This document shows, piece by piece, positions 135 through 25,502 of a stretch of 64,000 nt of DNA (position 1 is the first letter of the stretch; each line of letters starts with the position of its first letter). Source of the stretch: Lytechinus pictus (taxonomy: Eukaryota); assembly GCF_037042905.1 (NCBI RefSeq), contig NC_087251.1:23252001-23316000 (forward strand), in the 5' to 3' direction. Below the pieces are notes generated by a model. It was given only the letters and a program-made list of their open reading frames with translations. It was not told the origin of the DNA and made no database searches. Made by a program: the position numbers and the translations under genes.

Positions 135-334
135 GGAATGTCGAACTATTATTATTTACAAATAATGAAGTATTACTTGGAATTATATATAAATAATTAG
201 AAATGATATTTTATATAATAGTAGTTATTTACAAATAAAATGTAAATTATATATAAATAATAGTTATTATTTAATAAATAATGATTATATAACAAATAAT
301 TGTTCTATATAATATTGGTACATTCGGCGCCTCA

Positions 335-1847
335 TAATGAACCCCCCTTACATCTAAGATACGAAAAACTCTCTTTACACTATGCGATAAAGTTAAAAAA
401 TAACTCTCATAATCCGACATATGATTGTACATTCACGCCACGATATATTAATTTTTATACTAGTAAACCATCAGCCATCAAAACTTTTGGTTTACGTACT
501 AAAGAAGCTTTAACACATATACTGGATGCTACTAACGTAGCTCCTTCCTTGATATATAATATTCCACCATGGATGATTGCTGAACCAGTAATTGATTTTA
601 CACTAAGAACATATAAAAAGGGTTTTACAAGTGATTTAGTTTTCCTAAATAAATTTGGAGAAATAAGACATAAATATAGTAATTATCGTGCAATCTATAC
701 AGATGGATCAAAACACCAGAATAAAGTAGGTGCGGCTTGTATCAGTGGTCCTATACAAAGACAAGTTAGATTGCCAGATAGTTCTTCCATATATACTGCT
801 GAGTTATTAGCTTTGAAAATGGCTTTAGGTGTTGTAGAAAACTGTGTCGGTAGACTTTTTGTTATTTATACAGATTCTTTGTCTTCTTTAACGGCATTAC
901 AAAATAGAAATCATAAACATCCTTATATTGTTCAGTTATTGGAAATTCTGTATAAACTCAATACACTAGGTAAACAAATAATATTTGTTTGGATACCAAG
1001 CCATACAGGTATTCAAGGTAATGAAAAAGCTGATAAGTTAGCTAAAGAAGCTTTAGATCTGGATATAACAGAAATACAGATACCTTACACTGATCTAAAA
1101 TCAAAGGTTAATACTTATATTAGAAATAAATGGCAAACATCATGGGATCTAAATCCTAATAATAAACTCCATCAACACCAACCAAGACTTGAATCACAAA
1201 ATACTCTTCCATTAGCTAAACGACGGGAAGACATTGTATTGACCCGTGCTCGTATTGGACATTCTCACTTAACACATGCATATTTATTTGCAGGAGAAAA
1301 TCCACCTCAATGCATATCATGTAATTGTACACTTACAGTAAAACACATCCTCATTGAATGTGTTGATTTTGCACATATTCGTACTAACTTTTATGATGTT
1401 CCTGACCTTAAGATATTATTTAGATATATTTCACGATTATGTATTGTAAATTTCCTAAAGGAGATCAATCTGTTTATTAGATTTTAGGTGGGAAACTGTT
1501 CGATTCCCAATCACAACAGGTATACCCTTGGGCAAGGTATTTTATTCCAATTGTCTAGTCTTTCGGAGGAGACTCTAAGCCGTCGGTCCCGTGTAAGGGA
1601 GAGTCACACCATTTGCACGTTAAAAAACCTACTCCTCTTTTCGTAAAGAGTAGGGAAGTTATCCCGGGGAAGTAGTTAACATATTAATTTATTGCTGATA
1701 ATCACTTATTTATAATCCTGTTCCTTTGTAAAGTTGCATTAGGGTAATTTGTACTGTATTATAGTAACCTTTCCAGATTAACTGTCCGACACTTATATGA
1801 CACGCATGTGTTGATAGTGTCGTTAAATTTTTATCAATCAATCAATC
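335..1847 (+). mobile_element. Non-LTR retrotransposon (I/Nimb-type) 3' portion, copy 1: RNase H, CCHC knuckle, 3' UTR, (CAAT)n tail
   Basis: ORF ending at 1487 has RNase H motifs YTDGS, AELLA, TDS, WIPSH, GNEKAD and C-terminal CISC..KHILIEC; identity to copy 2 begins at TAATGAACCCC (335); tail ATCAATCAATCAATC ends at 1847. Confidence 0.92.
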
Positions 1848-3692
1848 CTGTAGTTCAACAAACTAAATACCTAGGCTTAATATTTGATAATAAATTCAAT
1901 TTTAAAGCTCATATTGATTATGTAAGACTAAAGTGTCATAAAGCTTTAAATCTTTTGAAGGTTGTGTCCAAAATGGATTGGGGTGCTGATCGCATTGTCC
2001 TTCTCCGTTTATATAGATCTTTAGTTAGACCTAAGCTTGATTATGGCAGTGCAGTTTATAGTTCCGCCCGAACGTCATATCTTGAAAAATTGAAACCCAT
2101 ACAGAATCAAGGACTTCGACTTTGTCTAGGAGCATTTCGTACATCTCCTATGGAGAGTCTTTATGTGGAGGCTAATGAACCCCCCTTACATCTAAGATAC
2201 GAAAAACTCTCTTTACACTATGCGATAAAGTTAAAAAATAACTCTCATAATCCGACATATGATTGTACATTCACGCCACGATATATTAATTTTTATACTA
2301 GTAAACCATCAGCCATCAAAACTTTTGGTTTACGTACGAAAGAAGCTTTAACACATATACTGGATGCTACTAACGTAGCTCCTTCCTTGATATCTAATAT
2401 GCCACCATGGATGATTGCTGAACCAGTAATTGATTTTACACTAAGAACATATAAAAAGGGTTTTACAAGTGATTTAGTTTTCCTAAATAAATTTGGAGAA
2501 ATGAGACATAAATATAGTAATTATCGTGCAATCTATACAGATGGATCAAAACACCAGAATAAAGTAGGTGCGGCTTGTATCAGTGGTCCTATACAAAGAC
2601 AAGTTAGATTGCCAGATAGTTCTTCCATATATACTGATGAGTTATTAGCTTTGAAAATGGCTTTAGGTGTTGTAGAAAACTGTGTCGGTAGACTTTTTGT
2701 TATTTATACAGATTCTTTGTCTTCTTTAACGGCATTACAAAATAGAAATCATAAACATCCTTATATTGTTCAGTTATTGGAAATTCTGTATAAACTCAAT
2801 ACACTAGATAAACGAATAATATTTGTTTGGATACCAAGCCAGACAGGTATTCAAGGTAATGAAAAAGCTGATAAGTTAGCTAAAGAAGCTTTAGATCTGG
2901 ATATAACAGAAATACAGATACCTTACACTGATCTAAAATCAAAGGTTAATACTTATATTAGAAATAAATGGCAAACATCATGGGATCTAAATCCTAATAA
3001 TAAACTCCATCAACACCAACCAAGACTTGAATCACAAAATACTCTTCCATTAGCTAAACGACGGGAAGACATTGTATTGACCCGTGCTCGTATTGGACAT
3101 TCTCACTTAACACATGCATATTTATTTGCAGGAGAAAATCCACCTCAATGCATATCATGTAATTGTACACTTACAGTAAAACACATCCTCATTGAATGTG
3201 CTGATTTTGCACATATTCGTACTAACTTTTATGATGTTCCTGACCTTAAGATATTATTTAGAGATATTTCACGATTATGTATTGTAAATTTCCTAAAGGA
3301 GATCAATCTGTTTATTAGATTTTAGGTGGGAAACTGTTCGATTCCCAATCACAACAGGTATACCCTTGGGCAAGGTATTTTATTCCAATTGTCTAGTCTT
3401 TCGGAGGAGACTCTAAGCCGTCGGTCCCGTGTAAGGGAGAGTCACACCATTTGCACGTTAAAAAACCTACTCCTCTTTTCGTAAAGAGTAGGGAAGTTAT
3501 CCCGGGGAAGTAGTTAACATATTAATTTATTGCTGATAATCACTTATTTATAATCCTGTTCCTTTGTAAAGTTGCATTAGGGTAATTTGTAATTTGTACT
3601 GTATTATAGTAACCTTTCCAGATTAACTGTCCGACACTTATATGACACGCATGTGTTGATAGTGTCGTTAAATTTTTATCAATCAATCAATC
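1848..3692 (+). mobile_element. Same LINE, copy 2, 5'-truncated within the RT domain and joined directly to the tail of copy 1
   Basis: KYLGLIFD and WGADRIVLLRLYRSLVRPKLDYG RT C-terminal motifs, RNase H, CCHC; stop at 3325; about 99% identical to copy 1; same tail ends at 3692. Confidence 0.93.
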
Positions 3693-3891: not shown

Positions 3892-5082
3892 ATGACAGAC
3901 ACCGACATCTCAACCTTTGAGAACCAGACGAGAGGACAGACAATATTCATCCATGTTGACACAAGACTTGCTTTATTAATTTCGCTGTACACGGTGATTG
4001 GTTTCATGACAATAGTATGTAACGTTATAGTCATTGCTACGTATTGGAAATTCTCCGACGCAAAGAAAGATGTGGCCAACACTTTGATCTTGAATTTGTC
4101 TTACGCTGATCTACTGGTTGGGGTTATTAATGTCCCCATAATTGCCGTTGTAGAATTTCACCAAGGACAGTGGATCTTTGGTGAGGTCTCGTGCAAGATA
4201 GTTATAGCTGTCAGCTATCTCGATACCTTAATTCCTGTGGTGATCATGTTGATGCTCATGGCCCATAGGAGAATGTCTGTTTCCAGAAATGCTCACATTC
4301 GCAATTATTTGAAGAGAAGACATATCCACAGTATGATGGCAATTATCTGGTTGGTACTTCTTTTGTTTTACCTCATGATATCTTTTGGCTTTCCGAAAAT
4401 AAGCCAACGTAGGTATGTGGACTACGAGAGCTTCTGTGAGATGGAGATGATTTACCACAAACCATTTGCTGTAGCTTTGACCATATTTGAATTCATTTTG
4501 CCCGTAATTTGTCTCTCGGTGATGACAATAAATTTACTCTATACCATTTGGAAACAGTCGCATATCATGGTAGGTATCAGCAACAGTTTCCAACGAAATG
4601 AAACTGAAAGACATCCCGATCACGACCTGTGTCCAAACAGTTCGGCAAATGGAATGTCTTCAGAATTGAACATGTCCTCCCGCATGTCCTCAGCGCTACC
4701 GGCAACATCCTGTCAACCTCAGACCTTAAACTCCACAGGTTCTAGAATGGCGAGTCTTCAAACAAAATCAAACCAGCATCGTGACAATAACCGAGAAGAA
4801 AACCCAGAAAATAGAGGTGGTCGATCATGCTGTTTTCGACCCGTTAGAGGCATTCGTCGTTCTAGTCGTGCCTTGTTAGCCATCATCCTGTGCCACATGT
4901 TCTTTTGGTCACCTCATGCAGTAACGAGCTTGATAAGAGCAGTGTGCCCAAGATGCATCTCAGTTGCTACGTTTCGTTACGCTACCATATCTCTCGGATT
5001 GAATAGCGTGGTAAACCCATTTCTTTACGCTTTTACTAGTCGCCACTACAGAATGGGAATCCTTCGACTTTCTCGATGTTGA
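3892..5082 (+). CDS. Rhodopsin-like (class A) GPCR, 396 aa, single coding exon, amine-receptor-like scaffold with atypical motifs
   Basis: Seven hydrophobic segments; TM1 CN, TM2 NLSYADLLVG, ECL1 WIFGEVSC, TM5 FILP, TM6 FWSP, TM7 NSVVNPFLY; pyrimidine tract plus CAG acceptor at 3883 just before ATG 3892, so the ORF-track start at 3823 is probably intronic. Confidence 0.9.
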   Translation: MTDTDISTFENQTRGQTIFIHVDTRLALLISLYTVIGFMTIVCNVIVIATYWKFSDAKKDVANTLILNLSYADLLVGVINVPIIAVVEFHQGQWIFGEVSCKIVIAVSYLDTLIPVVIMLMLMAHRRMSVSRNAHIRNYLKRRHIHSMMAIIWLVLLLFYLMISFGFPKISQRRYVDYESFCEMEMIYHKPFAVALTIFEFILPVICLSVMTINLLYTIWKQSHIMVGISNSFQRNETERHPDHDLCPNSSANGMSSELNMSSRMSSALPATSCQPQTLNSTGSRMASLQTKSNQHRDNNREENPENRGGRSCCFRPVRGIRRSSRALLAIILCHMFFWSPHAVTSLIRAVCPRCISVATFRYATISLGLNSVVNPFLYAFTSRHYRMGILRLSRC

Positions 5083-11394: not shown

Positions 11395-12910
11395 AACAAG
11401 TTCAAGTTTATTTATTCAAAACCAAATACATCACATCATAATCAAAATAGATATACATACAACGTAAATGTGTACATAAACACACATCAGTTAGATTATA
11501 GCATAGACGAATTGGTTTTAGGACCCCTTTTTAAAGCAAAGCTTGTGAGTGGGGCCCTGGAATACTTATGATTATTAACATAGAACATAGGATATACTAA
11601 TCTATAAAATACAAAAGGAGATAACAAATATATAATAAGGTTAAGATGCTAAAAATAGAATGGAAAACTATTACAAACACACATATATACACATACCCAC
11701 ACGCATTTTGGATAATCTTTTGAACATGAGAAGAGTTTTACTATTTTTTATATCAACAGGTAAACTGTTCCACTCTTTAATACAGGATAATTATATGAAA
11801 GTAGGTCAGAGTGACATTTGTTCTCGCAAATGGCTGACGAATAATAAACCTTTGACGTGTATTATATTTATGTATTTGTGAATTCTGAAGAAATAATTTT
11901 TTAAGGTACATTCTTGAGGCATTGCTTGTAGTTCGAACACACATTGAACGACACAACTTCACTTAGTGTTAGCATTTTCAGACGAAGAAATAACGGAGTA
12001 CTTGGATGGCTATAATTAGAATTTGTTTTAAGTCGTATTGCCCTTTTCTGCAATACTCTCAGTTTAACAAGATAAGACTTGAAAGTGTTTCCCCAGGCAA
12101 CATTACAATATGCCAAATAAGGTAGAACAATACTATTGTTTATTGTTATCAGTATTATTTCAGGTAAAATTGATTTACACCTACACTGCGAGACACCTTT
12201 GTGCAGACAGCATCTAGATGATTTTTCCAGGATAGGTGATATAACCCAATAAAAAAAATATTTGCACTTTGTTCAACATCATGACCCCCTGAAGACAAGT
12301 TATACGCCCTAGAAGTTTTTTACCCTTATATAGAGCGGAAAATTATGCACTTGGTTTTTTGAATATTCAAAAATAGCTTATTACAACAAAACCATGCATA
12401 CAGCTTCTTAATTTCTTGATTTGCATTCTGTAACAAATTTTCTACTGACTTATCAGCTAGCAACAGTCTGGTATCATCAGCAAACAGGGAGTATGAGAAT
12501 AATGTTGGTGAATGTATATATCGTTTACATAGATTTAGGACAACAGGGGACTAAGAACAGAACCCTGAGGTACACCATACTTAATCGTAGCATGTTTGGA
12601 TCTAGATCTATCTATCATAACAAATTGTGTTTTGTCACACAAATAGCTTCGGAACCATGACAATGCTACACCACGAATTCCATAATGTTCATGTTTCTTG
12701 AGAAGGACATCATGGTCAATGGTATCATATGCCTTTGAAAGATCTAAAAATATCCCCAGACAATATTTGTTTTTATCAATATCATTTATGATATTACTCA
12801 ATAGGTGAAAAACACCCATTTGTGTGGAGAAGTTTCTACGAAATCCGCACTGCTGAGAAATCAAGATGTTTCTTTTTAGATAAAACTCATTTAAACGTTT
12901 ATAAATTATA
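11395..12910 (-). mobile_element. Decayed CR1/L2-group LINE, RT and 3' end
   Basis: Minus-strand QCGFR, GIFLDLSKAYDTIDH, YGVPQGSVLSPLL, LFADDT (about 12470-12488), YCNVAWG..LQKRAIR; frameshifted; AATAAACTTGAACTTG-type tail near 11395-11418. Confidence 0.88.
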
Positions 12911-13179
12911 TTTGTTCCACTTGGAAATTGATAGATGATACAGTAGCTAATAATATTAAATCAAAACCTATTGACTCAATCTTTACTACTGATGTTCAAT
13001 CTGGATTGCTATTCACCGATTGCGAATGCAATAATTATTTTGTAACCACAGGTGAAAAGTTGGTAAATCAGCTTGCTTTTCATATTTCTTCATTTGCACT
13101 TTCATCTCATGATCAGAATCAGATCTTTATGTTTTTAACCCATTACATACATGGAAAGTTATGATATTGTTAGAATTTG

Positions 13180-22750: not shown

Positions 22751-24313
22751 TTAACACTGAATACGAATCTTTACCCAAAATGAATATTTGTGTCAAATTT
22801 AATGAGCACAGGCTGAAAACAGAAGTAGATTGATCCACAATGAGTTTTCCTGCATTTCTAGCTATCATATGTGGTTACCCTGGCAATGCACTCTCTGACA
22901 AATGCAAAAAAAGGTTCTTGCACATCTTTACCTCAAGGCCTGTGAGCCGTATTTCATGAAAATTGGTTCAAAACTGATGAAGTAGTTCAAATTGCAAGGT
23001 TTTTACCTAAATCTTGCCATATAATATGTTGTTACCATGGCAACACAATTTCTGAAACACACACAAAAAGTGCCTTGTACATCTTTACTTCAATACCAAT
23101 GTGTGTGCCGAATTTCATGTGAATTGATTGAAAACTGATGAAGCAGTTTGAATTGTAAGTTTTTTCCCAATTTTCACCATGTAATATGTTGTTACCATGG
23201 CAACAAGAATTCTGAAAGACACACAAAAATGTGTCTTGGATATCTTCACCTCAAGACCAATGTGTGTGCCAAATTTCATGAGAATCAGTTAAAAACAGAG
23301 GAAGAAGTTCTAAGTGCAAGATTTTTACCTTATTTTTGCCATAATACACTGTTACCATGGCAACACCAATTCCAACACATGCAAAAAATGTGTTTTGCAC
23401 ATCTTTACCCCAAGATCAAAATATGTACATACACACCAACATTCAACCCCCTCCACCGCCACCCTTCGGCTTGTTTAGCATCTGCATTCAGATATTAATT
23501 TTGATGCATTTAGATGTGAGGAGAAACAGAACATCTGTTCAAAAGGGGTCTGAATTCTAGAACTAACCCAATGCAAAATAATGCACTGCTATTGAGTTTT
23601 GCACTGGCGCTAGTCTATATATCAGACCAATCTAAACTCATAAATTCTGACATTTTCACCCATTTTTTTCACTGTTCCTGCAGCCAGATTTTTTGGAGCA
23701 TACCCCATTTTTAATTCTTATACATAAACAAAGGTCTGGAGAAAAAATCATGCTTTTGTCCACCGTGTCCACAAGTAGGGTATTTTTGACGGTAACAGAC
23801 CGGACTATACCGAACTTTTTGAAATTCGATGTGGCCGGGTATTCCATCCACCGTATTCAAGTTAATCCGGCCGTAGCGCTCGGGAAAGCTGAAAAAAAAA
23901 AACTTCTAGCTCAGTCAGAGGTTAGGCAGGAGGACCATCCGTTTAAAGGTATGACTTAATAAATGATAATTCTCGAAATGATTTAACTTTAAGATACAAG
24001 TTGTGGCCGTAACTTTTTCTATAAAATTTCATTTGACTGTGAATAGGTACCTTGTAAATGTAATCAAGAATCGAGATGCGAGAGCCCATGCCATGGGCGT
24101 CAGTGTCACCAGCAAGCTCGGCGTTGACCGTTGTTTCCCCTGCCCTAACCCAGGGAGCTCCGGCCAGCTAAGCGGGCCGGGGCCCAGGTCAGAGTCGACC
24201 GTGCAAAACGAGGGAGACACGGGACTGGGCCTGGGGTAGATTGGGGTCTTAATAGTAATCTTGGCATGCCGCAATCTTAATAAAATGTGGAAACAGAATT
24301 TGGTAAGAGTTCC

Positions 24314-25284
24314 GGCGCTAGTGTAGTTTCGCACCTCCCCGTTTAATGGTTTTCAAACATACTACAATCTCACCCTAAATAATTCACAACCTAAATACTT
24401 GCATCTGAGCCTCCAAAGTACGGTACAGTAGAAGTTGAATATTTGCCGTTTTGACACTTTTTTACAAAGTTTTACACCTATTTCGGAATCACTCGGTCGC
24501 TTGATCAAGCTCAGCGCTGCACATAAGCAGTCGGTACGCGTACAGTACGTACCACCTAGTGACCTAGTGAAGTGCAAGAAGAGCGAGTTTTTCTATGGTA
24601 TCTTCAAAAAGATTTTCCCCCTCTTTCAGCTTGCACCAAGTATTACGGTAGTGCCAGTGGTTGTGCAGAGTGGTTGATGTTTGTTGTGTGAAGGTATGTG
24701 TATGGGGTGTGCGTGTGTGTGATTTTTTGAATGAAATAAGAAATGTGAAAAATGTGAATACACGTAGATTTAGCGATGAAAATAAGCTGAAAGAGGGGAA
24801 AAAAATCTTTTTGAAGATACCATAGAAAAACTCGCTCTTCTTGCACAACTGGGCGTTGTGGCGTGCGCCTGTAATCCAAGCTATGTGGGGAAGTTACAAA
24901 TTGATGCAGAGGTTCGAGGTTCGAGCCCTGGTCACGTCTTTCGGATGGTGACGTTAAAGGTCGGTCCCAGACGTAAATAATCATTTCTGATTGATACACG
25001 TCTGACAAAACTCAAATACACACACACTTCACTAGGTGGTACGTACTGCAGCGTACTGTGCGCGTACCGACTGCTAGTTATGTGCAGCGCTGAGCTTCAA
25101 GCGACCGAGTGATTCCGAAATAGGTGTAAAACTTTGTAAAAAAAAGTGTCAAAACGGCAAATATTCAACTTCTACTGGACTTTGGAGGCTCAGATGCAAG
25201 TATTTTAGGTTGTGAATTATTTAGGGTGAGATTGTACATGTTTGAAAACCATTAAACGGGGAGGTGCGAAACTACACTAGCGCC
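24314..25284. mobile_element. Long-TIR non-autonomous DNA element (Merlin- or MULE-like), host of the 7SL-headed SINE
   Basis: GGCGCTAGTGTAGTTTCGCACC ... GGTGCGAAACTACACTAGCGCC; about 320-bp arms; 8-bp TSD AGAGTTCC at 24306-24313 and 25285-25292. Confidence 0.88.
24847..25027 (+). mobile_element. 7SL RNA-derived SINE (Alu-domain head, B-box, Deu/Nin-like body, 3' stem-loop, (CA)n tail)
   Basis: ACTGGGCGTTGTGGCGTGCGCCTGTAATCCAAGCTA resembles the 7SL 5' end; GGTTCGAGCCC at 24918-24928; interrupts one arm of the host element at TTGCAC|TTCACTAGG. Confidence 0.75.
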
Positions 25285-25502
25285 AGAGTTCCATATGCAC
25301 CCCCACTAAAAATTGAAAATAAAATTAAAAACATGGAGAAGGTTCAGAATAATAATTTATCTAGAATCTAGTCCTAGGGCTAGGCTAAACATATATGATG
25401 GGGGAGTCGAAATACATACCAAAATATGGCTTTATTCCGTCAAATTTTGAGCAGGATCTAGTGCGTGTAATTTTCCATAGACATCGGTTTATTTAGTCAG
25501 TA

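Follow-up and report, generated by a model that had tools for sequence, protein, structure and literature searches.

The SINE insert and its empty site

The window analysed here is a 64,000-nt stretch of genomic DNA from the sea urchin Lytechinus pictus (RefSeq assembly GCF_037042905.1, contig NC_087251.1, positions 23,252,001 to 23,316,000 of the forward strand; plain coordinates below are those of the window). Its subject is a short interspersed element (SINE) with a head derived from 7SL, the signal recognition particle (SRP) RNA. Direct reading of the sequence places this SINE, a 181-bp insert at 24847-25027, within an element with long inverted repeats, whose right arm it interrupts. The inverted-repeat pair I3 joins 24572-24616 with 24802-24846 (45 nt, 100% complementary) and stops one base short of the insert, and the pairing of the arms picks up again at 25029 (pair I10, 24543-24562 with 25029-25048). 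An empty paralogous site is also preserved in the window, since the left arm, read backwards, runs from ...cttgcac directly into ttcactagg... with no intervening sequence. Because CAC is common to the target and the tail, the ends of the insert are fixed to within these 3 nt. The features of the locus are the following.

24311-24632, no strand assigned: left arm of the host element, with the uninterrupted target site between 24571 and 24572
24784-25287, no strand assigned: right arm of the host element, split by the SINE
24847-25027, + strand: full SINE copy, 181 bp, 1 base off the young-subfamily consensus
24848-24894, + strand: 7SL-derived head, recognised by identity to the host 7SL genes, the Rfam SRP alignment and a two-hairpin fold
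24852-24861, + strand: counterpart of box A, GGCGTTGTGG, read directly; putative promoter element
24895-24910, + strand: linker, TTACAAATTGATGCAG, with no significant match to the rest of 7SL and a marginal one to the DNA just 3' of the 7SL genes
24911-24928, + strand: 7-nt repeat GGTTCGA (24911-24917), then a tRNA-type B box, GGTTCGAGCCC (24918-24928)
24936-24968, + strand: core motif, GTCTTTCGGATGGTGACGTTAAAGGTCGGTCCC, of which 26 nt align with the core of a co-resident tRNA-headed SINE
24968-25004, + strand: 3' hairpin, with a 7-bp outer stem CAGACGT/ACGTCTG (24968-24974 and 24998-25004) and a 6-bp inner stem
25005-25027, + strand: tail, ACAAAACTCAAAT, then (AC)n, the repeat length varying among copies

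The insert, its boundaries and the preserved empty site agree with the initial annotation of this DNA: the letters match those that it quoted, the arm pairs I3 and I10 bracket the insert, and the B box, the motif at 24936-24968, the CAGACGT/ACGTCTG stem and the (CA)n end all lie where it had put them. The start at 24847 that it gave needs a small correction, since this first base, an A, varies among copies and the unit proper runs from ACTGGG, where the 7SL gene has its 5' end in the Rfam alignment. Among 63 distinct insertions the sequence at this point is AAC in 42, while G, C or T precedes AC in 12. Since the base preceding ACTGGG varies in this way, the transcribed unit would begin where the 7SL gene begins.

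Our results make it very probable that the insert is a copy of a recently active, modular sea urchin SINE that has a 7SL-derived head and depends on a long interspersed element (LINE) for its mobility. Its modules are about 47 nt from the 5' end of the host 7SL RNA, which would supply box A; a linker followed by a tRNA-type B box; the core motif; and the hairpin with its (CA)n tail.

The host element itself (24311-25287) would measure about 800 bp without the SINE, with two inverted arms of about 320 nt flanking a centre of about 150 nt. The arms differ from one another by a 9-nt indel, which adjoins the insertion site.

The 7SL-derived head

The head contains a closing helix (ACU/AGU), helix 3 (GGGCGU/GCGCCU), the UGUAAU turn and helix 4 (UCC/GGA) with its loop. 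At gathering thresholds no Rfam family matched in the window. At relaxed thresholds, the Metazoa_SRP model (RF00017) matched 24848-24942 with 30 bits (E 4.2e-6, 451 bases searched), and in this alignment the 5' three-way junction is matched base for base. For a fragment one would expect a score short of the gathering value of 70, as is the case here, and the SINE is not an SRP RNA gene. The genuine genes are present in the host genome in seven full-length copies, which score 272-283 bits with the same model. Nucleotides 2-32 of the SINE are identical to one of them, the gene at locus L037, at 31/31 positions, and the local alignment with this gene extends over 47 columns with 42 identities, placing the end of the homology at about nt 48; over 41 nt, identity to the other six genes is 90-93%. 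The alignment to the urchin's own 7SL genes thus confirmed the 7SL origin of the head that had been claimed from the sequence. The box A region is identical to that of the host 7SL; the box A of human 7SL reads GGCGCGGTGG (PMC7245038; this and the other papers cited are drawn on in part).

The closing helix ACU...AGU is common to the SINE and L037, while the other genes have ACC...GGU, which makes it a compensated pair. Because of this shared pair, the comparison points to an L037-like 7SL gene as the probable source of the head. The SINE also shares with the host 7SL the species-specific stretch GTTGTGGCGTGCGCC. Taken with this stretch and the ACU...AGU helix, the 31/31 match to the urchin's own 7SL gene supports an origin of the head that would be independent of Alu and B1. 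The initial annotation had proposed an invertebrate host and an independent birth for this 7SL-headed SINE, and both proposals were borne out, the host being a sea urchin and the head matching its own 7SL gene.

It is scarcely credible that the head is tRNA-derived or unrelated and resembles 7SL by chance. A tRNA-type B box does follow the head, but ARAGORN found no tRNA in the SINE and no Rfam tRNA model matched it at E<=10, against an E of 4.2e-6 for the SRP model and the 31/31 identity to the host 7SL. The head therefore does not score better as a tRNA than as an SRP RNA, which would have spoken against the 7SL origin.

How far the 7SL sequence extends was judged against shuffled sequences. 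The body of the SINE aligns with the rest of the 7SL gene at a score of 11, compared with 9.1 +/- 1.5 for shuffles, 40 of 300 of which reach it, and in a colinear test against 7SL nt 45-135 the score was reached by 43-664 of 1000 shuffles. Homology past nt 48 was consequently rejected. SINEBase asks for a resemblance to tRNA, 5S or 7SL RNA that spans at least 60 nt with no less than 60% identity (PMC3531059); the young form of the element shows 74 identities in a local alignment of 106 columns, of which the stretch past column 47 adds no score and is not above shuffles. Of the Alu domain, the element thus appears to keep the 5' domain and no more, about 47 nt with helices 2-4; the box B and the 3' end of 7SL are lacking. 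The Alu-domain fold claimed at the outset holds for this 5' part, while the 7SL 3' segment is not detectable. Folded alone, the head forms two hairpins around GUAA, as genuine 7SL heads do.

A variant copy was observed at L134 and L135 (C1:43.04 Mb and C8:3.44 Mb), which represent one insertion that was duplicated (2 matches at <=3 mismatches). It has a gene-type head, CCAGCT without the extra A of the SINE, and another linker and B-box region (TTCAGCCGAGGACGCAGGTTCGAAACTGAATC), followed by the usual body and tail. At L136 (C13:13.43 Mb) the head is as in this variant and the sequence diverges afterwards.

A young, multicopy family

The search of the species' own assembly covered 811.7 Mb in 368 contigs. 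Similarity to the SINE returned 1838 first-look candidates, of which 40 were scored, giving 48 listed matches on many contigs with 91-100% identity. The 25-mer of the head that includes the SINE-specific extra A had 833 exact matches (414 + 419), compared with 0 for the reversed control, and a pattern in which the two outer-stem strands of the 3' hairpin enclose 8-40 free bases had 1120, compared with 10. The SINE's own loop was present in all 100 of the 1120 stem-loop matches that were listed. Allowing for decay of the exact words, these counts point to a family of roughly 1,500-2,000 copies. The element is thus no single copy, and the expectation of a multicopy family is supported by all three counts.

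The copies are dispersed over many chromosomes, and their flanks are unrelated from copy to copy. In the terms of SINEBase, the 181-bp unit is short (<1 kb), interspersed and non-tandem, with a few short tandem arrays besides. The window copy differs by 1 base from the young-subfamily consensus, and most of 57 aligned copies lie 0-2 bases from it; this sample consists of the best-scoring matches and is hence biased. A less biased sample was taken from the first 24 places of the head 25-mer list, of which 22 hold full-length copies and 1 an interrupted one. The 22 full-length copies show 0-6 substitutions relative to the young consensus, plus two indels that define subfamilies: the 7-nt repeat GGTTCGA is absent from 16 and the TA (2 nt) of the helix-4 loop from 12, and all four combinations of the two were found. 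Older copies, with 80-90% identity, are also present. The family therefore comprises several subfamilies and was active very recently. Since many copies are only 0-2 changes off the consensus, active source copies and insertion polymorphisms are likely.

The insertions also bear signatures of retroposition. Among 64 distinct full-length insertions, target duplications of at least 5 nt flank 16, compared with 6.1% in controls with mismatched flanks, and duplications of at least 7 nt flank 5, compared with 0.44%. The tail holds about 5 CA units in some copies and more than 15 in others, and 5'-truncated copies occur.

Small RNAs joined to LINE or SINE 3' sequences by template switching are known from mammals (PMC7245038), and the copies could in principle be independent chimeric retropseudogenes formed by switches onto 7SL RNA, with no self-propagating family behind them. 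We consider this very unlikely, since one identical junction is found in hundreds of copies and the subfamilies share diagnostic indels. Moreover, the 833 head 25-mers with the SINE-specific extra A stand against only 11 genome-wide occurrences of the gene-type 24-mer that lacks it, namely the seven 7SL genes, one SINE copy and three others.

Several arrangements of the copies deserve mention. Head-to-tail arrays of 2-4 units with identical junctions occur at C19:10865242-10865951, C2:17634172-17634687, C8:17842740-17843107 and C8:6822129-6822506, and look like local tandem duplication rather than repeated insertion. One SINE dimer is found with identical flanks at four loci (L039 and L041-L043, on C18, C2, C4 and C7), and a matching pair of SRP-model matches lies at another site on C7. 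At L040 (C5) the 5' flank agrees, and a single unit was seen there. This dimer travels within a larger repeated unit. Finally, the SINE copies at L072 and L085 each hold an identical element of about 140 bp with the terminal inverted repeats GGGGAG.GTTTCAT.... In the SINE body the two insertion points are about 12 nt apart at most, which suggests a miniature inverted-repeat transposable element with a preferred target there.

Body, tail and origin of the chimera

The core motif is shared with a second SINE family of the same genome. This co-resident element is about 400 bp long (L050, L055, L057, L058, L066, L067 and L069) and is tRNA-headed, with an A box TGGCTCAGTCGG, a B box GGTTCGAGTCC and a core that contains ...CTCGGATAGGACGTTAAATGGAGGTCCCGTGT... 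It was recognised through a pattern that excludes the 7SL-headed SINE, with 66 matches and 0 for the control. The common 26-nt stretch reads GGAT.G.GACGTTAAA....GGTCCC, and the core of the 7SL-headed SINE aligned with three of the tRNA-headed copies at scores of 15, 19 and 20, compared with 10.2 +/- 1.6 for shuffles, the scores being reached by 6, 0 and 0 of 300 shuffles. On the strength of this 26-nt match, the core motif may be of the Deu/Nin-DC type. The tRNA-headed family is probably a DeuSINE of the SINE2-3_SP kind. SINE2-3_SP of S. purpuratus is described as a DeuSINE (PMC3747384).

The B box GGTTCGAGCCC lies about 55 nt past box A; it is of the tRNA type and does not align with the internal region of 7SL. 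Similar modules stand outside the 7SL genes. The 3' flanks of those at L031-L036 (C10:7.91-7.92 Mb and C1:16.87-17.41 Mb) hold a tRNA-like T-arm with a perfect B box, GGTTCGAGTC(C/T), which is thus found in 6 of the 7 genes, 20-50 nt past the terminator, with different spacing and surroundings in L032 and L033. Yeast U6 has a downstream promoter element for RNA polymerase III (Pol III), and the B-box module downstream of the 7SL genes may be one as well. An old copy of the 7SL-headed SINE (about 80-90% to the consensus) was also observed ending about 35 nt upstream of each of three tandem 7SL genes on C10 (L031, L035 and L036), directly before the conserved upstream motif GATATTTCCTTAATTTCGC; it looks like one insertion duplicated along with the genes.

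These flanks raise the possibility that the first ~85 nt of the SINE are a collapsed 7SL gene and not 7SL RNA that was joined to an older SINE. In this reading, a DNA deletion would have joined the 5' domain to the terminator region and the downstream tRNA-like B-box module, the core and the tail being added later. Besides the presence of the module in 6 of the 7 genes, SINE nt ~53-86 align with the flanks of the three C10-cluster genes and of L034 at scores of 14-16, compared with 7.0 +/- 1.4 for shuffles (0-1 of 300 reach them), while the T-arm of the co-resident tRNA-headed SINE aligns at 9-11 only. In addition, a pattern combining a tRNA A box with the B-box/body junction of the SINE had 0 matches in the species' own genome, so that no tRNA-headed element with this junction was seen there. 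The signal of the flank alignment shrinks when the B box is held fixed, 6-46 of 500 shuffles then reaching the score for the four genes and 59-391 of 500 for L032 and L033. Copies that lack the 7-nt repeat align without significance, the variant copy at L134/L135 does no better than 10-390 of 1000 shuffles, and L037, the gene with the SINE-like head, has no downstream B box. We therefore rate the collapse of a 7SL gene as unlikely; the evidence that the linker and B box came from a 7SL 3' flank is suggestive, and we treat it as a minority hypothesis.

At its other end the SINE forms a stable structure. The 3' hairpin folds with -13 kcal/mol, compared with -3.97 +/- 1.94 for shuffles (z -4.65), and none of 200 shuffles was as stable. 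It is presumed to be the recognition site for the reverse transcriptase of the partner LINE. The combination of hairpin and microsatellite tail, together with the published partners of other sea urchin SINEs, led us to infer a partner of the CR1/L2 type.

Searches for other elements with this end gave candidates that were all rejected. Patterns that excluded the SINE body upstream had 1 and 19 matches, all of them truncated or internally deleted SINEs with unrelated upstream DNA, and nine stem-loop loci without the head 25-mer proved to be six full-length SINEs with a point change and three 5'-truncated ones. L072 and L085, which had appeared to be copies with another head, are the SINEs that carry the ~140-bp inverted-repeat element. 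In the window, LINE fragments lie at 300-3322 (+), where two partial copies in tandem encode reverse transcriptase and RNase H with up to 80% identity to unnamed database proteins, and at 11904-12960 (-), where there is a second reverse-transcriptase fragment. Neither of them shares the SINE tail.

We propose that the modules act together as follows. Pol III would initiate at the 7SL start site by means of the 7SL box A and the B box downstream and, since TTTT is absent from the whole unit, would transcribe the SINE entire, with no internal termination. The 3' hairpin and the repeat tail would then be recognised by the reverse transcriptase of a CR1/L2-type LINE, which would copy the SINE RNA into nicked target DNA; copying of this kind would account for the 5' truncations, the variable tails and the short or absent target duplications. 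The 7SL 5' domain, for its part, probably recruits SRP9/14, by which the RNA would reach ribosomes engaged in making the LINE protein, a route that has been proposed for Alu. The element would work like a stringent-type SINE with an Alu-like head.

Some of our observations weigh against a LINE-dependent SINE with a working 7SL head. The 3' half of the Alu domain, which in 7SL and Alu helps to clamp SRP9/14, is absent. The fold of the head is no better than that of shuffles (z 0.24); since genuine 7SL heads are likewise no more stable than shuffles, this energy test is uninformative. The whole element folds no more stably than shuffles (z -0.98), and the Alu 5' fold is missing from its structure of minimum energy. 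No duplication of at least 5 nt is visible at 48 of the 64 insertions, part of this shortfall arising because a duplication that starts with AC is absorbed by the tail, the window copy being an example. Lastly, the LINE sharing the 3' end of the SINE, which the initial annotation had proposed to look for, was not found by exact or near-exact pattern searches of the species' own genome, and a DNA search with the tail only, whose words are too common, returned nothing.

Some of these points would also fit a head that serves as a Pol III promoter only, providing box A and a defined start, with no role for SRP9/14; the element would then resemble a tRNA-headed, CR1/L2-dependent SINE with another promoter donor. 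In SINEs of the stringent type the partner recognises the 3' hairpin and tail, and the hairpin of our element is strong, while only half of the Alu domain is kept, the B box is of the tRNA and not of the 7SL type, and the stability of the head does not exceed that of shuffles. Against a promoter-only head, the kept piece stops exactly where the self-contained 5' domain does, its closing helix is intact through the compensated pair ACU/AGU, and the subfamily changes in the head lie in the loop of helix 4 and spare the stems. In mammals, moreover, the 50-nt 5' domain alone binds SRP9/14. We regard a promoter-only head as a serious possibility, although one that we lean against, and prefer a head that also recruits SRP9/14.

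A 7SL origin of SINEs is reported to be extremely rare, known from one mammalian lineage, one hagfish family and, in 2026, the shrew mole (PMC7245038, PMC13023118). The hagfish SINE1-1_EBu was called the first clear SINE1 outside Euarchontoglires (Kojima 2020, PMC7245038), and, in the part of their paper drawn on here, Kosushkin et al. (2026, PMC13023118) state that no other taxa were known before the shrew-mole family Urop. In the printed literature we found no 7SL-headed SINE from any invertebrate; Repbase, Dfam and the supplements of SINEBase lay outside this search, and an unpublished or misclassified library entry may exist.

By the defining feature of SINE1, a 7SL-derived 5' part (Kojima 2020), the urchin family would belong to this class, as judged from its sequence. 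It lacks two features found across SINE1: the central 7SL deletion that keeps both halves of the Alu domain (as in Alu, B1, SINE1-1_EBu and Urop), and the derivation of both promoter boxes from 7SL, its B box being tRNA-type. The tRNA-like head of SINE2 is absent as well (no tRNA by ARAGORN, and no tRNA family at E<=10).

The closest parallel is SINE1-1_EBu, which, like the urchin family, represents an independent birth of a 7SL-headed SINE outside mammals, is young and numbers a few thousand (in hagfish, 2363 full-length copies), joins 7SL to other SINE and LINE-type modules, and has a microsatellite tail in place of poly(A) and a partner LINE other than L1, the urchin partner being a predicted one (PMC7245038). 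It differs in keeping 96 nt from the 5' and 44 nt from the 3' end of 7SL, that is, the full Alu domain, and in taking both promoter boxes from 7SL, whereas the urchin SINE keeps only about 47 nt (the 5' domain with box A) and has a tRNA-type B box. The hagfish tail is RTE-derived with (AAC)n, that of the urchin a hairpin with (CA)n.

Alu and B1 (FLAM, PB1) of Euarchontoglires and Urop (PMC13023118) likewise start with the head of 7SL, including the 5' domain with its UGUAAU turn and two hairpins, and have an internal Pol III promoter, which is predicted in the urchin SINE. They consist of 7SL sequence alone with a central deletion of about 183 nt, end in poly(A) and are mobilised by L1. In contrast, the urchin SINE lacks a 7SL 3' part, its body is foreign and its tail is not poly(A). 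The Tu-type SINEs of tree shrews and GarnAlu of the bushbaby also combine 7SL-derived and tRNA-type modules (PMC7245038), but they are fusions of existing families that go back to a single mammalian 7SL SINE ancestor, while the head of the urchin SINE would come from an echinoderm 7SL gene.

In the part of Ohshima 2013 (PMC3747384) used here, all sea urchin SINEs have tRNA heads and CR1 or L2 partners. SURF1/SINE2-4c_SP, the DeuSINE SINE2-3_SP and SINE2-8_SP, compared with our element by description only, resemble it in host group, modular build, conserved core and LINE-type 3' end, the last being presumptive for the 7SL-headed SINE. They differ in their tRNA heads and in having named partners (CR1-4_SP, CR1Y_SP and L2-1_SP/CR1-3_SP).

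Tentatively, and with more doubt than confidence, the family may be read as one more independent origin of SINEs with a 7SL head, and the first among invertebrates, in which the ~47-nt 5' domain would be sufficient, the 3' half of the Alu domain and L1 would be dispensable, and the SRP9/14 module would have been recruited convergently for a CR1/L2-type LINE that recognises a hairpin. In its boldest form, this proposal would make the SINE a collapsed 7SL unit with its own downstream B-box module. Alu, the most abundant human repeat, is 7SL-derived, and an echinoderm case would extend the range of 7SL SINEs from vertebrates to invertebrate deuterostomes. As a natural minimal construct that keeps the 5' domain alone, the element would bear on which portion of the Alu domain is important to retrotransposition and on whether LINEs other than L1 profit from ribosome tethering through SRP9/14. 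Sea urchin embryos are tractable for experiments.

Finally, two genes lie elsewhere in the window. An intronless gene for a rhodopsin-type G-protein-coupled receptor occupies 3892-5079 (+), and a multi-exon formin (FH2) gene extends over 34187-60000 (+). The latter has a large exon of 617 aa, which places the host among sea urchins close to Lytechinus, with identities of 94% to a protein of Lytechinus variegatus, 68% to S. purpuratus and 40% to Diadema.

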